Made by a program: the position numbers and the translations under genes
The notes under the pieces: generated by a model
What the model saw: only the letters and a program-made list of their open reading frames with translations
What the model was told of the DNA's origin: nothing
Database searches by the model: none
Part shown: positions 43,065 through 60,824 of the stretch, piece by piece
Layout: every line of letters begins with the position of its first letter
Numbering within the stretch: the first letter of the stretch is position 1
Assembly: GCA_051861545.1 (NCBI GenBank)
Contig: JBIMKP010000004.1
Location: 41,647-105,646 of the forward strand
Direction: 5' to 3'
Origin: Bacteroidia bacterium
GTDB lineage: Bacteria; Bacteroidota; Bacteroidia; UKL13-3
DNA length: 64,000 bases

Positions 43065-44055
43065 TTCAATTTATAGAATTGCTGCAATCTGGGCTTTTGC
43101 AGAATCTGGTTTAGGCGGATTAATGCATGCATTTAAAATTCCTTTTACTGGAATTTTTATTGGTGGAATGGCGGTGATTATGTTAATACTTTTAGCTCAT
43201 CAAACTTCAAGTAAAAACATTATTCAAATGACACTTTTGGTAATGTTAGTAAAGCTAATTGCTAGTCCACAAGCCCCTGCTCCTGCTTATTTAGCCGTTG
43301 CTTTTCAAGGATTTTCTGCTGCTTTAATTTTTGGAATCATTCCTCATAAAAAAATTGCAAGTCTTTTATTTTCTGTATTAGCAATGATGGAATCGGCTTT
43401 GCAAAAAATCATCATTACAACCCTTATTTATGGAAAAGCTTTTTGGGAATCAATAGATATGTTTTCTCAATCTGTACTTAAAGATATGGGAACATTCTCT
43501 GACTTTGAGTTAAGCTGGTGGCTAATTGCAAGCTATTGCGGCATTTATTTTGTTTGGGGATTTTTTCTTGGTTTTTGGGGATTATCGATTCAAAAAAGAA
43601 AAGAACAAATGGGCGTTCATCTTTCTAATTTTATAAAAGAAAATCAAATTGAACTACCTACTGAACTCGAATCAAAACATAAAAAACACAAAAACATTTT
43701 GCCTTTTATTTCAATTGGGATAATCATTGGAATGATGTCTATTTTTTATTTTATGGGATTTAAAAGTAAAGAGATTGTTTGGGTTTTAATGAGAAGTTTA
43801 TTTGCTTTACTTTTTATGATTTTCGTATTAAATCCAATCATTAAATTCTATTTAAAAAGATGGTCAGAAAAGCAATCAGATAAAAGAAAAAAAGAAATTG
43901 ACTTGGTATTAGGGCAATTGCCTTTTATTAAAGAAAATTGGTATTTATCGAAAGAAATTACACGAATTTCAAATATTGGAAACAGAAGTATTTTTAGAAC
44001 ACTAGAAACTTTTATTTTTTTGAGTTTATCTAATTATGATTCCAGCAGAAAATAG
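43045..44055 (+). CDS. Hypothetical polytopic membrane protein
   Basis: 336 aa, about 8 TM spans. Overlaps the LacI stop and the next gene's start by 20 nt each. The start codon is uncertain. Confidence 0.45.
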   Translation: MQATNHDSIYRIAAIWAFAESGLGGLMHAFKIPFTGIFIGGMAVIMLILLAHQTSSKNIIQMTLLVMLVKLIASPQAPAPAYLAVAFQGFSAALIFGIIPHKKIASLLFSVLAMMESALQKIIITTLIYGKAFWESIDMFSQSVLKDMGTFSDFELSWWLIASYCGIYFVWGFFLGFWGLSIQKRKEQMGVHLSNFIKENQIELPTELESKHKKHKNILPFISIGIIIGMMSIFYFMGFKSKEIVWVLMRSLFALLFMIFVLNPIIKFYLKRWSEKQSDKRKKEIDLVLGQLPFIKENWYLSKEITRISNIGNRSIFRTLETFIFLSLSNYDSSRK

Positions 44056-45103
44056 AATTATTATTTTAAGTGATGATATAAGAACTGGAAAATCAATTGC
44101 TTTATCCAATTGGCTGAAAAACATCCGTTCTAAGGGTGGATTTCTAACGCCAGATATTGATAATAAAAGGAAGTTACTGAGTCTAAATACAGGAATTTAT
44201 CACAATTTTGAAGTTGAAGAAACAGCAGTTGATAAGGTCTCAATTGGCCGTTTTCATTTTTCAAAAAAGGTTATGGATGATGCTGCTGAGGAAGTATTAT
44301 ACATTATTGATAAAGGCGTTCAGTATTTAATAATTGATGAAATTGGTAGACTTGAAATTGAATCAAATTTGGGCTTCTTCCCTATTTTAAATGAGCTAAT
44401 TTCAAGTTATCAAAAACCAGGATTGGGTTATTTAATATTAGTAATTCGACAATCACTTTTACAAAAAGGAATTGAAAAATTTCATCTTCAAAATGCCAAA
44501 ATATTAAACTTAAATGAGTTTAATTCTGCCATTCAAAGCCAAGGTTTAGTTTTAGCTGGTGGAGAATCTAGTCGTATGGGAATCTCAAAAGGTTTAATTA
44601 ATTACCACGGGCTTAATCAACAAGATTTTTTATACAAAGAATTATCAAAACATTGTGAAAAGGTATACTTGAGTTTGAAACAAAATACTTTTGAAAACAA
44701 TCCTAGTAATTTACCAAGCATAATCGATAATCCTCTATTTGCTGATAAAGGCCCAATGTCGGCTTTGATTAGTGCTATACTAGAAAATCCATTAGCTAAT
44801 TGGTATGTTTTAGCCTGCGATTATCCCTATTTAAAATGCAGAGATATTGAGTTTTTATACAAGTTTTTTATTAATTCTGAAGCAAGTGTTTGTTTTGGAA
44901 AAGATAAAACATACGAGCCTTTATTGGCAATTTATCACAACAATGATTTTAATACTTTATGGAAAATGTTTAGTAAAGGAAATGAATCATTAAAGAAATT
45001 TCAAGATACTATAAAACCTAAAGTTTTAATGCCAATTCATGATGATATTTTAATAAGTGTGGATACCCCAGAACAAATGAATGAAGCTAAATTGAAATTA
45101 TGA
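44036..45103 (+). CDS. mobA: Fusion of a P-loop NTPase-like domain with molybdenum cofactor guanylyltransferase (MobA-like)
   Basis: N-terminal DDIRTGKS (Walker A-like) and YLIIDEIGRLE (Walker B-like). C-terminal half has GLVLAGGESSRMG, the MobA signature. Confidence 0.65.
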   Translation: MIPAENRIIILSDDIRTGKSIALSNWLKNIRSKGGFLTPDIDNKRKLLSLNTGIYHNFEVEETAVDKVSIGRFHFSKKVMDDAAEEVLYIIDKGVQYLIIDEIGRLEIESNLGFFPILNELISSYQKPGLGYLILVIRQSLLQKGIEKFHLQNAKILNLNEFNSAIQSQGLVLAGGESSRMGISKGLINYHGLNQQDFLYKELSKHCEKVYLSLKQNTFENNPSNLPSIIDNPLFADKGPMSALISAILENPLANWYVLACDYPYLKCRDIEFLYKFFINSEASVCFGKDKTYEPLLAIYHNNDFNTLWKMFSKGNESLKKFQDTIKPKVLMPIHDDILISVDTPEQMNEAKLKL

Positions 45104-45933
45104 AAAACAGTGGTGTTAAAGTTTTTTCGATTAAATCGTATAAAGAGCAAAATGCTGATAGTAAAGATGACTTATTAGTTGTTGAAGAGCCTTTAGAGAT
45201 AAGACTAAGATATGGCTTAATTAACGATAGAAAAGAAATGAACTTGGCTATTACTATGCGCACGCCAGGCCACGACTTTGAATTGGTTCGAGGTTTTTTG
45301 TTTAGTGAAGGAATTATTCATAAAGTAAATGACATTATCAGTATTAAATATTGTATAAATACCAAAGAGGAAGAAGAAAATAATATTGTTAAAGTTGAAC
45401 TTTCTGAAACTGTATTATTGGATGAAAAGTTATTTAAAAGAAATTTTTATATTAGTTCTAGTTGCGGTGTTTGCGGGAAATCAAGTATAGAATCTGTAAT
45501 GGATTCTTGTAATATAAAAGTTGATTCTAATACCAAATTTAAAGCTTCTACCCTCTTATTATTGCCTGATGCATTAAGGAATGAACAAATAAGTTTTAAA
45601 TATACTGGAGGCTTACATGCATCAGCTTTATTTGATGAAAATGCGAAGATTATTTTATTAAGGGAAGATGTAGGTAGGCATAATGCATTAGACAAAGTTA
45701 TTGGAGCTAGTTTAGGGAATTCTTTAATAAATTATGGCTTAATTTTAAGTGGTCGCATTAGCTTCGAACTTATGCAGAAAGCGGCCATGGCGGGAATTCA
45801 ATTGGTTTGTGCAATTGGAGCTCCATCGAGCTTAGCAGTCGAAATGGCCAAAGAGTTTAATATCACATTAATTGGTTTTCTTAAATCAGATAGAATGAAT
45901 ATTTATGCTGGAGAAGAACGAATTATCTATTAA
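45100..45933 (+). CDS. fdhD: Formate dehydrogenase accessory sulfurtransferase FdhD
   Basis: SSCGVCGKSSIE, GGLHASALF and EDVGRHNALDKVIG. ATGA overlap with the upstream gene. Confidence 0.85.
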   Translation: MKNSGVKVFSIKSYKEQNADSKDDLLVVEEPLEIRLRYGLINDRKEMNLAITMRTPGHDFELVRGFLFSEGIIHKVNDIISIKYCINTKEEEENNIVKVELSETVLLDEKLFKRNFYISSSCGVCGKSSIESVMDSCNIKVDSNTKFKASTLLLLPDALRNEQISFKYTGGLHASALFDENAKIILLREDVGRHNALDKVIGASLGNSLINYGLILSGRISFELMQKAAMAGIQLVCAIGAPSSLAVEMAKEFNITLIGFLKSDRMNIYAGEERIIY

Positions 45934-45950
45934 GAAAAAAGCAAAACATA

Positions 45951-46694
45951 TGAACCTTTATGGTTCATGAAATTGAGCTAATTAGATTGTTTATTAAACC
46001 AATTAAAATCAAACTTCAAACCCAAAATCTAACGACTCAGAAGGAGTCGTATGTTTATAGCAATCTCCCGATGAATTGGTGCGACCCTGAAGGGGTCGAA
46101 TTGCATTTTGCAGGAATGTTGCTATAAACATGTGAACCTTTCTGGTTCAGAAGATTTTGCTAAATTAGTTGCTTGTTGAAAAATATCAAATTCATGTTTC
46201 AAAATAGAAAACGCACGACTCAGAAGGAGTCGCATGTTTATAGCAATCTCCCGATGAATTAGTGCGACCCTGAAGGGGTCGAATTGCATTTTGCAGGAAT
46301 GTTGCTATAAACATGTGAACCTTTCTGGTTCAGAAGATTTTGCTAAATTAGTTGCTTGTTGAAAAATATCAAATTCATGTTTCAAAATAGAAAACGCACG
46401 ACTCAGAAGGAGTCGCATGTTTATAGCAATCTCCCGATGAATTGGTGCGACCCTGAAGGGGTCGAATTGCTTCCTCATGAATGTTTCTATAGACATGTGA
46501 ACCTTTCTGGTTCAGAATACTGAGCAAATTCTATCGTTAATTTATACCAATTAAAATCAAGTTTTATAACGAAATCTCACGACTCTGAAGGAGCCGTATG
46601 TTTATAGAAATACTCTCAAAAAATATGCGACCCTGAAGGGGTCGAATTGTGTCCTCATGAATGTTTCTATAAACATGTGAACCTTTCTGGTTCA
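45951..46694. repeat. Array of structured repeats: 4 units with 183/183/181-bp period plus a leading partial unit
   Basis: The acgactc(a/t)gaagga anchor recurs at 46032, 46215, 46398 and 46579. Each unit holds hairpins cgactc-agaag-gagtcg, cgaccc-tgaag-gggtcg and tgaacc-tttct-ggttca, and the inverted pair atgtttatagcaa/ttgctataaacat. Confidence 0.92.
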
Positions 46695-46729
46695 TTAAAT
46701 TCAAAAATTCTTAAACAATCAAGTTTAAA

Positions 46730-47191
46730 TCAATCATACCATTCAAATAAATATTCATCTTTAAAATCAATATTAAACTTACTAAGAAATTCAATATATT
46801 CTGATTTAAAGGACTTTTTCATATGATGCGCTTTTTGATTATTAATATATTTTATAACTGCTTCTAAAGCAGATTGATTGTAAGAAAAAGCACCAAAACC
46901 TTCCTGCCATGAAAATTTATATTTTGAAAAACTTCTTTCATTAATAAACACATTTGAGGATTTTTTTATTTCTCTAATTAAATCTGATAAACAACATGAT
47001 GGCTTCATTCCAATCAATATATGTATATGATCAGGCATACCATTTATAGCTAATATTTTTTGATTTTTATTTTCGACAATACCTGTGATATATTTATAAA
47101 GGTCTTCTTCCCAACTCTCATTTATTAAAGATTGTCGACCTTTTACAGCGAAAATAATTTGAATATATATTTGTGAATACGAACCCGGCAT
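46730..47191 (-). CDS. IS200/RAYT-type Y1 (HUH) tyrosine transposase, 153 aa
   Basis: HUH motif MPDHIHILIG; catalytic-Tyr context AVIKYINNQKAHH; size and N-terminus (YSQIYIQIIFAVKGR) are typical of the Y1_Tnp fold. Confidence 0.85.
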   Translation of the reverse strand: MPGSYSQIYIQIIFAVKGRQSLINESWEEDLYKYITGIVENKNQKILAINGMPDHIHILIGMKPSCCLSDLIREIKKSSNVFINERSFSKYKFSWQEGFGAFSYNQSALEAVIKYINNQKAHHMKKSFKSEYIEFLSKFNIDFKDEYLFEWYD

Positions 47192-47315
47192 ATTCTCAAA
47201 AGTCTATTGAATATTTTATAAAACAATGACATGTAATAAAATTTAAGGCTTACCTAAATAACATTAATAGTTTCCTTAAAAATTGCATTTTTTACAAAAA
47301 AATTAAAAATTTTAT

Positions 47316-47540
47316 GCAACCACCTTCGGTGTCGAATTTCATACTTATGAATATCTCTATAAACATGTGAACCTTTCTGGCTCAACAGATTGCGCAAATT
47401 CTATCCTTAATTTATACCAATTAAAATCAAGTTTTATAACGATATCTCATGACTATGAAAGAGTCGAATGCTTATAGGCCAACCTCGTTGAAGATAAGAC
47501 CCTGAAATGGTTGTATTGTATTCTCATGAATGCTTATAAT
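47316..47540. repeat. Decayed copy of the same repeat unit, same orientation, on the other side of the transposase gene
   Basis: gcaaccaccttcggtgtcgaatt...ctctataaacatgtgaacctttctggctca...atttataccaattaaaatcaagttttataacgatatctcatgactatgaaagagtcg...aagaccctgaaatggttg is collinear with 46448-46670. Confidence 0.8.
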
Positions 47541-47578
47541 TTGGCAAATCATATGATTTAACAATTCTAAAAACAAAA

Positions 47579-47604
47579 ATGCCGCTCCAAAATTGAAGCG
47601 GCAT
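47579..47604 (-). terminator. Bidirectional Rho-independent terminator downstream of gyrA
   Basis: atgccgct-ccaaaattga-agcggcat flanked by an A-run and a T-run. Confidence 0.7.
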
Positions 47605-47627
47605 TTTTTTTATTTTAAACCAATCAA

Positions 47628-50207
47628 CTATTCTGTTGGTGGTGTTTCATCTTCTGGAGTTGTTTCTTCTGGAGAAACTTCTGCATTGTCTTCAGGAATA
47701 TCTATTGTTAAATCAATTGGTCCATCAATTATAGTTCCATCATCTTCTAACAATTCATCTTCTTCACCTTCAATTACATCAATTTTAGCAACTGATGCAA
47801 TCTCGTCTTTTCCACCAATATTAATCAACCTAACACCTTGAGTTACGCGACCCAATACTCTTAAGTCTTTCATGGCTAAACGAATGGTAATACCTGACTT
47901 ATTGATAATCATGATATCGTTGCTATCATCCACATCTTTAATAGCTACCAATTTACCAGTTTTATCAGTAATATTCATAGCACGAACACCTTTACCACCA
48001 CGATTGGTAATACGGTACTCTTCTACCTCAGAACGTTTACCCATTCCATTTTCACTAACTACCAAAACATTGGTTGTAGCAGGATCGGCAATAGAAACCA
48101 TTCCAATAACTTCATCACCTTCATCTAAACGTATTGCTCTAACACCAGTGGCATTTCTACCCATCGGACGAACTGTACTTTCGTTAAAACGAATTGCTTT
48201 TCCTAATCTTGAAGCAATAATGATTTCGCTGGTACCACTGGTTAATCTGGCTTCAACCAAATGATCGCCTTCTCTAACTGTGATTGCATTAATACCATTT
48301 GCTCTTGGGCGACTATATGCTTCCAATGTTGTTTTTTTGATAGTACCTTGTTGGGTTACCATAATTACATTGGCTTGGTTGATATATTCTTGGTCGTTAA
48401 GGTTTTTAACATTCAAGAATGCTTTCACTTTATCATCAGCAGGCATATTGATAAGGTTTTGAATTGCTCTACCTTTAGAAGTTTTTTCTCCTTCTGGAAT
48501 TTCAAAAATCCTCAACCAGAAACATCTTCCTTGTTCTGTAAATAATAACAAGAAATTATGGTTGGTTGCCATGAAAATGTATTCTACAAAATCTTCTTGA
48601 CGTTTAGCAACGCCTCGGCTTCCTCTTCCACCGCGGTTTTGTGTGCGGTATTCGCTTAATGAAGTTCTTTTAACATAACCCAAATGTGAAATGGTAATAA
48701 CCACGTCATCATCTGGAATAAGGTCTTCCATGCTCATTTCGTTTCCACTCATTTCAATAATTGAACGACGAGCATCAGCATATTTTTCCTTCATTTCAAG
48801 TAACTCATCCTTGATAATTTTCATTCTGATAGATTCATCAGCAAGAATTTCTCTTAAATGAGTAATGAATTTCATTAATTCAGCATATTCAGCGCGTATT
48901 TTATCTCTTTCAAGTCCGGTTAAACGCTGTAATCTCATATCTAAAATAGCTTTCGCTTGAATTTCAGATAATTTGAAGTTTTCCATTAATCCTGATTTTG
49001 CATCATCTGGATTAACACTTTTTCTAATTAATGCAATAACTTCATCTAAATGATCTAATGCAATTAATAAACCTTCTAAAATATGAGCTCTTTTTAAAGC
49101 CTCATCCAATTCATATTGAGTTCTTCTAACTACAACTTCATGTCTATGTTCAACATAAAATTTAATTAAACCTAATAAGTTTAATGTTTCTGGTCTTCCT
49201 TTTACCAAACAAACATTATTAATATTAAACGAAGTTTGTAATTGAGTGTATTTATATAATTTGTTTAAAATTACATTTGGAACTGCTTCACGTTTTAAAT
49301 CGTAAACAATACGCATTCCATCTCTATCACTCTCATCTCTGATATCAGAAATTCCTTCAATTACTTTTTCATTGATTAACTCTGCAGTTCTTTCAATTAA
49401 GCTTGATTTATTTACTTGATAAGGAATTTCAGAAACTATGATTTGGTTTTTACCAGTTGCAGAAGTTTCAAAATTAGCTTTAGCACGCATCACTATTCGT
49501 CCGCGACCAGTTTCAAAAGCTTCTTTTACACCCTCGTAACCATAAATTGTACCACCTGTAGGAAAATCTGGTGCCTTCACGTACTTCATTAAATCGGCAA
49601 CTGTAACATTATTATTATCAATATATGCTACTACACCATCAATAACCTCACCTAAGTTATGCGGAGCCATATTTGTGGCCATACCAACAGCAATACCAGA
49701 AGCGCCATTCACTAATAAATTAGGAATTTTTGCTGGCATTACAGTAGGTTCTTGCAAACTATCGTCGAAATTGGGACGAAAATCAACTGTATTCTTCTCT
49801 AAATCAACCAATAACTCTTCAGCAATTTTTCTCAATCTTGCTTCGGTATAACGCATAGCAGCAGGAGGATCACCATCCACCGAACCAAAGTTTCCTTGGC
49901 CATCAACCAGCATATAACGCATATTCCACTCTTGTGCCATCCTAACCATGGTATCATAAACCGATGAATCACCATGTGGGTGGTACTTTCCTAATACCTC
50001 TCCAACAATTCTCGCTGATTTTTTGTAAGGCCTGTTCGATGCCAGACCCAATTCTGTCATACCATACAAAACCCTTCTATGCACGGGTTTTAATCCATCT
50101 CTCACATCCGGTAAAGCCCGGCTTACAATAACCGACATCGAATAATCGATGTAGGCGGTCTTCATTTCATCCTCAATGTTAATCGGAATAATTCTGTCTT
50201 CTGCCAT
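47628..50207 (-). CDS. gyrA: DNA gyrase subunit A
   Basis: [17 protein letters not shown] and [10 protein letters not shown] (active-site Tyr); C-terminal beta-pinwheel repeats; acidic tail. Confidence 0.97.
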
Positions 50208-58634: not shown

Positions 58635-60048
58635 GTTCTGCCAATATCACATCTTCCCTATCAACTCTTACTTGTCCGGGCAATGCTCCTTTGGGTTTCC
58701 GAACAAACTTTTTTTCTGTAACCATAACAGCTACAAGTCCACTCGATTTTGATTTGGAAAAATAGGCTGCCAACTCCGCTGCTCGTTGAATTACGTGCTC
58801 CGGAGTTTTTCTTTTTTGTTGATTCTTAATAATAACATGACTTCCACTAACTCCTTTAGCATGTAACCACAAATCATCTTTTTTTGCGAATTTTAATGTT
58901 AAAACATCATTATTCTCCGAATTCCTACCTACATAAATCTTAAATCCATCACATTCAAATTCTTTAAAACCGGAAGCATTTTTCTGTTCAAATTCAATTT
59001 TATCTTTTTGCTTTAAAGCTTTTTTAGTTTCTGCTAATTGAACTTCTACTAGCCTTGGCTTTAACAACTTTAACTTTTCTTCAGCTTGAACAATCATTTT
59101 ATATGCTTGTTCAATTTCTAATTTTCTGTTTTTAGCTTTTCGGTAATATTGAGCAGCATTATCCTGTGGACTTAATTCCTTTTTTAATTTTATGCTGATA
59201 TTTACATTCCTGTAAAAATCGAACAACTCAGTTTTTTCATCACCTTTATTTATCGCATGCAAATTGGCCATTACAATATGTCCTATCTCCTCAGGATTAA
59301 TAGCATTTTCTAAATAATGAAGTCGGGTTTTGTTGTTATATAAAACCTGTTCCTGTCTTTTAATTTGATCTGATAATGATTTAAGTAAAGACTCCTTTTC
59401 CTTTAAAAAATGATATTGTTGAATATATCGTTGTGAGAAAAAAGTATAAGCATCTAAAATATCATACGAAAAATAAACCTGCTCCTCCTCTATTTGCTTA
59501 TCAATCTGCAATTCATATTGATTGTTTTTTTTATAAACGAAGTATGATATTTTATTTTTCGATTCTTCTATTTCTAAGCTCAATTTTTCAGAAGCAAGCC
59601 TATCAAGTTGATTTAATTGAACTTGAAAATCATTAATTATTGAACTTCTATAAGATTCTTTTGCAATGTTTTTTTCAATCAAAATAACATTACTTAAAGG
59701 GCCATAACACTTAAATAAAAGTGTTAAATCTTGTTCAAACTCTAGCAAAAATGAACGGTCATTTTTACTTTGAATAATACTTTTAATTCTTTTGTATTTG
59801 ATTGATTCAAATAAAGGTTGTACTCCAGAACTTCTGCTTAATTCATAATCAAAAAACTGAAACAAACCTTGCCTACATGAAGTATTTAAACTCATTGAAA
59901 AATAGCTTTCATCTAATTTAAATACTAAACTCAATTCATCTTCTTTATACCTGAATGCATCAGATAAAACAGCATTTTCTAATATTGATGTAAGTGTAAA
60001 ACTTATACGTTCAATACATATGTAATGTTGGTGAAAAGAAGCAATCAT
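58621..60048 (-). CDS. NFACT-family (RqcH/FbpA-like) protein with an NFACT-R/DUF814 domain
   Basis: C-terminal DDLWLHAKGVSGSHVIIK...ELAAYFSKSK; central coiled coil; ATGA overlap with the upstream gene. Confidence 0.7.
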   Translation of the reverse strand: MIASFHQHYICIERISFTLTSILENAVLSDAFRYKEDELSLVFKLDESYFSMSLNTSCRQGLFQFFDYELSRSSGVQPLFESIKYKRIKSIIQSKNDRSFLLEFEQDLTLLFKCYGPLSNVILIEKNIAKESYRSSIINDFQVQLNQLDRLASEKLSLEIEESKNKISYFVYKKNNQYELQIDKQIEEEQVYFSYDILDAYTFFSQRYIQQYHFLKEKESLLKSLSDQIKRQEQVLYNNKTRLHYLENAINPEEIGHIVMANLHAINKGDEKTELFDFYRNVNISIKLKKELSPQDNAAQYYRKAKNRKLEIEQAYKMIVQAEEKLKLLKPRLVEVQLAETKKALKQKDKIEFEQKNASGFKEFECDGFKIYVGRNSENNDVLTLKFAKKDDLWLHAKGVSGSHVIIKNQQKRKTPEHVIQRAAELAAYFSKSKSSGLVAVMVTEKKFVRKPKGALPGQVRVDREDVILAEPKLE

Positions 60049-60824
60049 TCTGATTTAAAATCTAATTGCAATCCATCATAAGCCAAATGAATATGACTTG
60101 GTAATTCTTTTTCAACTTCATCATGCAAACCCAATTGATGACTAATATGAGTTAAAAAAGCTTCTTGTGGATTTAATTCGTTTATTAATTCAACTGCTTC
60201 ATCTAAAGTAAAATGAGAGATATGTTTCTCTCTACGTAATGCATTTAAAACAAGATATTTACATCCCTTAATTTTCTCTTTTTCTCCATCACTAATTGCA
60301 TTCGCATCAGTTATATAAACGAATTCGCCAAATCGAAAACCTAAAACAGGTAATTTATGATGTAAAACCCTAATAGGTCTAATTACATTTCCGAATAACT
60401 CAAAACTTTCAGTGCCAATTCTATGAATATTCATTTCAGGAACACCAGGATATTTAGGCTCTGTAAAAGCATAATGAAATTCAGAGCGAATTGAATTTTC
60501 AACCCATTCTTCGCAATAGACATCAATTGCCTTTTTCATAATGAAGTTAAATCCTCTTATATCATCTAATCCAGCTAAATGATCTCTATGTGCATGAGTA
60601 AATAATATGGCATCTAAATGTCGAATTCCAGAAACCAACATTTGTTCTCTAAAATCGGGGCCAGTATCTACAACAATATTTCTATCATCAGTTTGAATTA
60701 AAATACTCGACCTCAATCTTTTATCACGTTTATTTGTAGAAGAGCATACCAAACAATCACATGCAATAATTGGCACGCCTTGTGAGGTTCCTGTTCCTAA
60801 AAATGTTACTTTCATTCTAGGCAC
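60045..60824 (-). CDS. MBL-fold metallo-hydrolase
   Basis: HAHRDHLAG (HxHxDH) and the downstream His/Asp pattern; 259 aa. Confidence 0.8.
   Translation of the reverse strand: MPRMKVTFLGTGTSQGVPIIACDCLVCSSTNKRDKRLRSSILIQTDDRNIVVDTGPDFREQMLVSGIRHLDAILFTHAHRDHLAGLDDIRGFNFIMKKAIDVYCEEWVENSIRSEFHYAFTEPKYPGVPEMNIHRIGTESFELFGNVIRPIRVLHHKLPVLGFRFGEFVYITDANAISDGEKEKIKGCKYLVLNALRREKHISHFTLDEAVELINELNPQEAFLTHISHQLGLHDEVEKELPSHIHLAYDGLQLDFKSE

Follow-up and report, generated by a model that had tools for sequence, protein, structure and literature searches.

We analysed a tandem array of hairpin-bearing repeats in a 64,000-nucleotide window from a Bacteroidia bacterium (GTDB UKL13-3; assembly GCA_051861545.1, contig JBIMKP010000004.1, positions 41,647 to 105,646 of the forward strand). 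All coordinates are counted from the first letter of this window. The array fills the gap between fdhD (45100-45933) and a terminator hairpin on the gyrA side (47575-47608), and it has embedded in it a gene, tnpA, for a Y1/HUH single-stranded DNA (ssDNA) transposase-like protein. Our analysis suggests that the array is probably a cluster resembling a REPtron or a bacterial interspersed mosaic element (BIME), in which the units are putative cognate ssDNA sites of the embedded enzyme. The features are listed below, where H1, H2 and H3 are the three hairpins of a unit and arm and arm' are the left and right halves of its long-range stem.

45944..46031, forward strand: unit 0, partial, just 3' of the fdhD stop codon; spacer-like sequence with 75% blastn identity to unit positions 96-173
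45950-45968: H3-like hairpin of unit 0, ATGAACC-TTTAT-GGTTCAT
46032..46214, forward strand: unit 1, subfamily A; three hairpins and two arms, then spacer A; DNA fold -30.1 kcal/mol, z -7.6
46033-46049: H1 of unit 1, CGACTC-AGAAG-GAGTCG
46051-46063: left arm of unit 1, ATGTTTATAGCAA
46082-46098: H2 of unit 1, CGACCC-TGAAG-GGGTCG
46119-46131: right arm of unit 1, TTGCTATAAACAT
46133-46149: H3 of unit 1, TGAACC-TTTCT-GGTTCA
46215..46397, forward strand: unit 2, subfamily A; H1 46216-46232, arm 46234-46246, H2 46265-46281, arm' 46302-46314, H3 46316-46332
46398..46577, forward strand: unit 3, a chimera of an A-type left half with a B-type right half and spacer; H1 46399-46415, arm 46417-46429, H2 46448-46464, arm' 46484-46496, H3 46498-46514
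46578..46694, forward strand: unit 4, subfamily B, without a spacer; H1 46580-46596, arm 46598-46610, H2 46628-46644, arm' 46664-46676, H3 46678-46694
46730..47191, reverse strand: tnpA, encoding a 153-aa Y1/HUH ssDNA transposase-like protein of TnpA-Y1 subclass 1.2, with the motifs DHIH, WQ (SWQEG) and YINNQKAHH
47317..47449, forward strand: unit 5, a truncated, eroded B-type unit 5' of tnpA; H2 47317-47334 (decayed), arm' 47354-47366, H3 47368-47384 (5 of 6 pairs), followed by spacer B again at 47385-47449
47450..47540, forward strand: unit 6, heavily decayed (nhmmer E 2.8e-10), with an H1-like TGACTA-TGAAA-GAGTCG at 47450-47466
47575..47608, reverse strand: terminator hairpin 3' of gyrA, facing the fdhD side too; present also in the related genomes G003, G004, G007, G009, G008, G006 and G002

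Tandem Repeats Finder (TRF) delimited the array at 46032-46694, with a period of 183, 3.6 copies and 88% matches. Each of the four tandem units carries three hairpins with a 6-bp stem and a 5-nt loop, together with one 13-nt long-range stem. An earlier note on this DNA had described the hairpins and arms of unit 1, and every one of them was located where it had placed them. It had also proposed a fully paired long stem for unit 4; the two arms (ATGTTTATAGAAA and TTTCTATAAACAT) do pair at 13 of 13 positions, but they lie at 46598-46610 and 46664-46676, one base away from its coordinates at each arm. One pair is broken in the H1 of unit 4. Only 2 of 183 positions distinguish unit 1 from unit 2. 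In unit 3, a C-type left arm faces a T-type right arm, which leaves a C.T mismatch, a T.G pair and 11 of 13 Watson-Crick pairs.

The segment H1 + arm recurs in inverted form as arm' + H3 (76% complementary over 41 nt, including the 13/13 arms), indicating that the unit is a quasi-palindrome centred on H2. H1 is followed by the tag ATGTTTATAG on one strand and H3 by the same tag on the other strand, while H2 (CGACCC-N5-GGGTCG) is central, some 20 nt away from either tag. When the two inverted tags pair, they form the 13-bp long-range stem. A CRISPR-like array was ruled out, since the 'spacers' are themselves repeated (spacer A twice, identical; spacer B twice).

The units were folded as ssDNA and as RNA on both strands. 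In the minimum free energy (MFE) structures of all units except unit 3, the sequence formed H1, a long stem with H2 at its tip, and H3, which is the architecture that had been claimed. The z-scores ranged from -4.4 to -8.9 over units, strands and nucleic acids, and 0 of 200 shuffles folded equally well. Unit 3 gave the weakest fold (DNA -22 kcal/mol, z -4.4), with part of the long stem only, and in the MFE structure of its plus-strand RNA the H1 sequence pairs with the H3 sequence in an outer stem.

The gene tnpA lies within an array of one orientation: intact units extend to 36 nt past its stop codon, and eroded units begin 126 nt upstream of its start codon. Its protein matched Pfam Y1_Tnp (E 1.1e-27), and the closest solved structures were the IS200/IS605 TnpA entries 2fyx, 2f4f, 2xm3 and 2a6m. 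With the HUH and Tyr motifs present, the enzyme looks intact from its sequence. IS200/IS605 TnpA enzymes bind subterminal DNA hairpins in ssDNA.

To place the protein among Y1 enzymes, we used the survey of Quentin, Siguier, Chandler and Fichant (2018, PMC6006769). Table 1 of that survey gives the motif row of subclass 1.2 as DH[IV]H, WQ and YIKNQKEHH (Y---Q--HH), with a median of 148 aa, and the subclass is described as low-copy, with divergent intragenomic copies, occurring in Bacteroidetes and Cyanobacteria, and as one that 'does not share IS properties' (IS, insertion sequence). The three motifs, the short length (153 aa), the low copy number and the divergent paralogues were all found for the protein encoded here. 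The survey also lists the subclass as 'REP: no' (REP, repetitive extragenic palindrome) and generally without terminal secondary structures, and in this the tnpA locus departs from it, with the gene lying inside a hairpin array. The lack of REPs is a reported property of the subclass and not its definition, so the membership of the protein stands.

We compared the locus across 10 genomes of the genus. The whole fdhD-array-tnpA-array-gyrA order was found in G008 and G006, with tnpA 86-88% identical, and partial synteny was found in G005 (fdhD and an array at a contig end) and G002 (an array and gyrA at a contig start). The fdhD-side unit number varied: four full units plus partial or eroded ones here, two plus a partial one in G008, one plus a partial one in G006 and at least four in G005. 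The site was empty in G003, G007 and G009, in which 58-95 bp hold only the shared terminator; as the sole fdhD-gyrA feature of the empty-site genomes, this terminator marks the right-hand limit of the inserted block. The fdhD-gyrA spacer of G004 (L124:466-583) is otherwise empty but keeps TTATAAACTTTTGAACCTTTTGC, an arm' + H3 relic, which suggests that the block was lost there rather than primarily absent. Gene and array have been inherited vertically at one locus, and the number of units has varied. G001 carries 24 CGACCC hairpins, in arrays on 7 contigs, versus only 2 Y1 genes. Between its arrays on contigs C11 and C4 (L117, L119), the central H2 loop changes orientation with respect to the outer hairpins, as if inverted within the palindromic stem.

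Covariation was assessed on an alignment of 26 units from six genomes of the genus, with slid partners and 500 shuffles as controls. The results showed that 90.4% of the cells were paired, compared with 27-51% for slid partners, in agreement with the claim that pairing is constrained. Double changes occurred in 11 of 31 pairs, and the 74 double-change cells exceeded the shuffles (30 +/- 4), none of which reached 74. The H1 variants CGACTC, CGATTC, CGACCC, CAATCC and TGACCC each have a matching 3' half, with clean double changes at four stem positions. At the base of the long stem, ATG/CAT alternates with AGG/CCT (12 versus 14 rows) with zero unpaired cells. H2 is invariant in this alignment. 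The pair that the earlier note had offered as its example, agCaa/ttGct changing to agAaa/ttTct, fared differently, being among the worst-kept pairs (columns 32/103: AU 10, CG 3, GU 3, UG 1, unpaired 9 of 26). In the window this change is a single event between two repeat subfamilies, and the chimeric unit 3 is mismatched, which is the very situation that the note had named as counting against its reading.

We then examined 80 orthologous Bacteroidota loci (63-88% identity, many orders), 79 of them outside the genus, and counted perfect hairpins with a 6-bp stem, a 5-nt loop and at least 3 G/C pairs. Across the 79 loci, there were 2.0 hairpins per kb up to 700 bp from the gene versus 0.16 per kb beyond 1.2 kb, about a 13-fold difference. 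At least one hairpin was present within 700 bp at 71 of the 80 loci, and at least two at 52. Loops were enriched at a length of 5 nt only, or of 3 nt when the stem was 7 bp. The dominant stem across loci was CGACCC/GGGTCG (115 copies); many of the copies listed have GTTTATAG about 20 nt upstream of the stem and CTATAAAC about 22 nt downstream of it. These two tags are 13-17-fold enriched near the gene. Throughout the phylum, this clade of genes is associated with the same hairpin and tags. One complete Bacteroidales chromosome combines a single tnpA orthologue with 24 hairpins, dispersed over about 16 loci, and another complete genome has two arrays, each adjoining a gene copy.

Arm complementarity at this scale was 7.0 nt within a locus, 6.95 nt between loci and 5.65 nt in shuffled sequence. 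Free, locus-specific covariation of the arms across the phylum was therefore rejected, and the equality of the first two values indicates that the arms are, at phylum scale, a conserved inverted sequence motif. The statement that selection acts on structure rather than on primary sequence did not hold, since across Bacteroidota it is the sequence itself that is conserved in the H2 stem CGACCC/GGGTCG and in the arms GTTTATAG/CTATAAAC, and the constraint is consequently not on structure alone. The reading of structure under selection is partly supported.

In the 4.48-Mb genome itself, CGACCC-N5-GGGTCG occurs 5 times against about 0.3 expected by chance, and the reversed-pattern control occurs 0 times. 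Genome-wide pattern counts, blastn and nhmmer showed that the unit family is nearly confined to the array locus, and the idea of a high-copy REP family was rejected on that ground. Solo, gene-less unit copies lie at C14:59912-59979 and C17:~67790-67848, with one further weak match on C6. The C14 copy has a full-unit counterpart in G002 and none in G008 or G004. The gene tnpA is single-copy, and its nearest paralogue in the genome is 52% identical. The six Y1 paralogues of the genome share 26-87% pairwise identity, and none is a near-identical or recent copy. The other five each have repeated or palindromic flanking sequence of their own kind.

On the REPtron/BIME-like reading, a unit exposed as ssDNA, for example at a replication fork, would fold into H1, a long stem tipped by H2, and H3. 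A TnpA dimer could then bind the hairpins and would cut and rejoin near the tags. Such cutting and rejoining may occasionally disperse units in trans and add or remove sequence in unit phase. Units would also be amplified locally, and homologous recombination between them would yield chimeras such as unit 3. The near identity of units 1 and 2 and the chimeric make-up of unit 3 point to this combination of local amplification and recombinational shuffling.

Several known systems resemble the locus in part. The REPtron of E. coli (TnpA-REP/RAYT, where RAYT is the REP-associated tyrosine transposase; Ton-Hoang et al. 2012, PMC3333891) also consists of a single Y1/HUH gene at one conserved locus that is lost in some relatives, and its gene is flanked by differing numbers of tandem inverted-hairpin pairs with linkers (BIME-2). 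Tandem BIME-2 copies at one locus are nearly identical, the repeats also occur in trans, and the unit does not move with the gene. A REPtron enzyme binds its REP/BIME in single-stranded form and cleaves it. At the level of the locus, what defines a REPtron was found here: a conserved tnpA site, variable unit numbers and empty sites in relatives. The enzyme differs, belonging to class 1 subclass 1.2 (Y---Q--HH) instead of class 2 (Y---NP) and falling outside the RAYT clade. The hairpins here are 17-nt and perfect, with 6-bp stems and 5-nt loops, whereas REPs are imperfect palindromes of 30-40 nt; the tag ATGTTTATAG is 3' of the hairpin, whereas GTAG is 5' of the REP foot; and the copies per genome number 5-24, whereas REPs number hundreds (PMC3333891). 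Each unit here has three hairpins, which also sets it apart from REPtrons and BIMEs.

The REPIN-RAYT systems of Pseudomonas (Bertels and Rainey 2011, PMC3116915) share with the array two inverted REP-like halves that form a long hairpin, a correlated change of the two halves, and a single-copy, vertically inherited partner gene. REPINs are dispersed singly in hundreds of copies, whereas the units here are few and mostly tandem; the array has the inverted-pair, long-hairpin geometry of a REPIN, but in place of a dispersed population of tens to hundreds there are the array locus, the C14 and C17 copies and the weak C6 match. The units here also have an extra central hairpin, and the enzyme clade is a different one. 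Compared with TnpA-Y1 subclass 1.2 as surveyed (PMC6006769), the difference is that the gene here and at the 79 orthologous loci is flanked by a conserved hairpin-and-tag module.

The IS200/IS605 elements IS608 and ISDra2 have the same enzyme fold and catalytic motifs, and hairpins beside the gene. A Y1 transposase with HUH and Tyr was likewise found here, but a mobile unit of gene plus ends was not: there is no sign of gene movement, no tnpB is present, and composite units in direct orientation flank the gene. On either strand the conserved tag precedes H2 on its 5' side by about 20 nt, close to the 19 nt that separate the left-end cleavage site of IS608 from its hairpin. IS200/IS605 elements insert 3' of a specific tetra- or pentanucleotide and are cleaved at defined sites at their left and right ends.

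Some observations weigh against the REPtron/BIME-like reading. Copies are very few: about 6 units at a single locus and 2-3 solo copies here, and no more than 24 hairpins per genome elsewhere, when classical REPs number hundreds. The protein scored 35.1 bits against the REP_Tyr_transpos model (NF047646; cut-off 80) and has Y---Q--HH instead of the RAYT Y---NP. The sole survey of the subclass that we found reports no REPs, so either REPs were missed or the association needs independent confirmation. Most of the growth of the array may be plain slippage or unequal crossing-over without the enzyme. The covariation counts are not phylogenetically independent, and two inverted copies that evolve in concert could give the appearance of selection on the long stem. 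Neither an excision junction nor a clean empty/filled pair that defines the element ends was found; in the comparison of the C14 solo copy with the empty sites of G008 and G004, the strong divergence of the intergenic region and the other repeats that fill it kept the ends from being fixed.

Among the alternatives, the one that survives best, though we regard it as unlikely, is an autonomous IS200/IS605-type IS whose left and right ends are the hairpins, the 183-bp units being gene-less miniature derivatives (like palindrome-associated or miniature inverted-repeat transposable elements, PATE/MITE) inserted head-to-tail beside their parent. The protein passed the NCBIfam IS200/IS605 model NF033573 (71.2 bits versus a cut-off of 55), and its nearest solved relatives are IS608, ISDra2 and Sulfolobus TnpA. 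About 707 bp, the size of an IS200, separate the H3 of unit 5 (47384) from the H3 of unit 4 (46678), like hairpins flank the gene on either side, and the entire block is missing from three congeners. This explanation is opposed by the single copy of tnpA with its 52% identical closest paralogue, and by the occupation of the same fdhD-gyrA site in at least three species, probably five, which indicates that tnpA has not recently moved. The complete Bacteroidales chromosome, with one orthologue and about 16 hairpin loci, also speaks against it, and the copies that flank the gene are direct, complete composite units and not distinct left and right ends. The subclass itself 'does not share IS properties' (Quentin 2018, PMC6006769).

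We give very little credence to the view that the units are tandem structured non-coding RNAs or a cis-acting RNA element, such as a structured 3' untranslated region of tnpA or a small RNA precursor. The RNA folds (z -4.7 to -7.2) are as significant as the DNA folds, the stems covary, and the hairpins followed by T-rich tags scored as weak terminator-like sites (17 versus 0.7 expected); these terminator-like matches are simply the hairpins and their T-rich tags. Promoter-like sites were not enriched (7 versus 8.8) in a scan that does not model Bacteroidota promoters. A search with Rfam covariance models gave no relevant match in 45000-48000 (E <= 1) or in 11 related loci (E <= 0.1), and only sub-threshold plant microRNA hairpin noise appeared. 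A look-up of the stretch in sequencing data returned DNA contigs, the best match probably being the source sample, and no RNA run. Either strand of the near-palindromic module folds equally well, the gene has units on each side, and the orientation of the G001 H2 loop flips between arrays; a module that is alike on both strands, together with this flipped loop, fits an element acting at the DNA level better than RNA. In addition, the loops vary freely while the stem and tag sequences are fixed across the phylum, and the units vary in number and are dispersed as DNA elements are. A structured-RNA role for the array is unlikely, and of the two forms that the earlier note had entertained, ssDNA or RNA, the adjacent Y1/HUH gene makes ssDNA far likelier.

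Equally improbable in our estimate is a functionless local satellite, in which an inverted-repeat-rich segment was duplicated by slippage or unequal crossing-over and the compensatory change arose from two subfamilies plus hairpin-templated repair. This would account for the in-window covariation as one event separating subfamily A (units 1-2) from subfamily B (units 4-5), with unit 3 mismatched, and for a family almost confined to the array locus in its own genome; the 2/183 difference between units 1 and 2 also indicates that their duplication is recent. Beyond the window, the same stem, geometry and tags flank the 79 orthologous loci in many Bacteroidota orders with 13-fold local enrichment, and within the genus the stems stay paired through at least four different double changes. 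Neutral decay is seen where it is expected, in units 5 and 6, indicating that the intact units are either maintained or young. The satellite explains the compensatory pair in the window but leaves the conservation across the phylum unexplained.

Systems that pair a Y1 enzyme with cognate hairpin repeats are well known as a kind, and for the window itself the outcome is not a surprise but a clear annotation. A broader and distinctly more tentative proposal, which we consider possible but doubtful, is that subclass 1.2 enzymes and the conserved three-hairpin module form a phylum-wide, vertically kept ssDNA system in Bacteroidota, distinct from IS200/IS605 and from RAYT-REP. If so, the module would be a hairpin with the ATGTTTATAG tag, a CGACCC hairpin, and an inverted tag with a hairpin. 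The long stem would juxtapose the outer hairpins and pre-form a synapse for a TnpA dimer, and the enzyme would add or remove unit-length pieces of ssDNA, producing length-variable arrays that the host may use. We found no published description of the hairpin-tag module in a literature search that was incomplete, and an earlier description is possible.

The Y1/HUH 'transposases' of this subclass make up at least 7990 database clusters at E <= 1e-10 and are annotated inconsistently as IS200/IS605 transposase or RayT, and the sole systematic survey that we found lists the subclass without partner repeats. The conserved and simple DNA partner described here, a 6-bp/5-nt hairpin with an 8-10-nt tag, is a candidate substrate for this uncharacterised enzyme branch, and would extend the REP/RAYT idea of a 'domesticated transposase' to Bacteroidota. 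The repeats are also a possible reason why such genes sit on short contigs in assemblies.

Further repeats were observed around the other Y1 paralogues of the genome. Those at C8:83137-83589 and C72:2297-2752 are 87% identical and share GATGGG-N5-CCCATC and ATAGGG-N5-CCCTAT hairpins of the 6-bp/5-nt form; their flanks contain GATGGG-TGCAG-CCCATC, ATAGGG-N5-CCCTAT and AGCCCTGAARGGGCG, with a few more copies on C37 and C25. The divergent paralogues at C65:256-717, C22:457-924 and C2:26667-27131 have their own flanking direct repeats with small palindromes, and the C65 paralogue also has a 16-nt tandem repeat, TTCATCGCGTATCCG. The C65 and C22 paralogues lie at the ends of their contigs, where repeats seem to have interrupted the assembly. 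Genome-wide, the commonest G/C-containing 6-bp/5-nt palindromes are GCGGAC-N5-GTCCGC (46 times) and GCGAAC-N5-GTTCGC (27 times); they could represent a further family of hairpin repeats or belong to a structured RNA gene.

Beside both solo copies of the array unit there are GGC/GCC-periodic stretches (e.g. TTTGGCTGTTGGCTTTTTGC and CAAGCCAGAGGCCAGCCGCCAGTTGCCAGCAGC) at C14:~60001-60032, C14:~60350-60385 and C17:~67685-67720, and these recur in congeners at orthologous sites. An unrelated repeat of about 140 bp at C14:~60113-60254 (L126:1114-1255) has more than 10 copies in the genome (C6, C37, C34, C28, C65 and others) and is also present in congeners. The contig of the closest relative, CALRIT020000001.1, is syntenic with the window and has Bacteroidota-type genes, yet it is titled as a metagenome-assembled genome (MAG) of the cyanobacterium Vulcanococcus; this bin is probably mislabelled or from a mixed culture. 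Upstream of fdhD, the window encodes a fusion of NTPase_1 and MobA-like NTP-transferase domains (Pfam) at 44036-45103.

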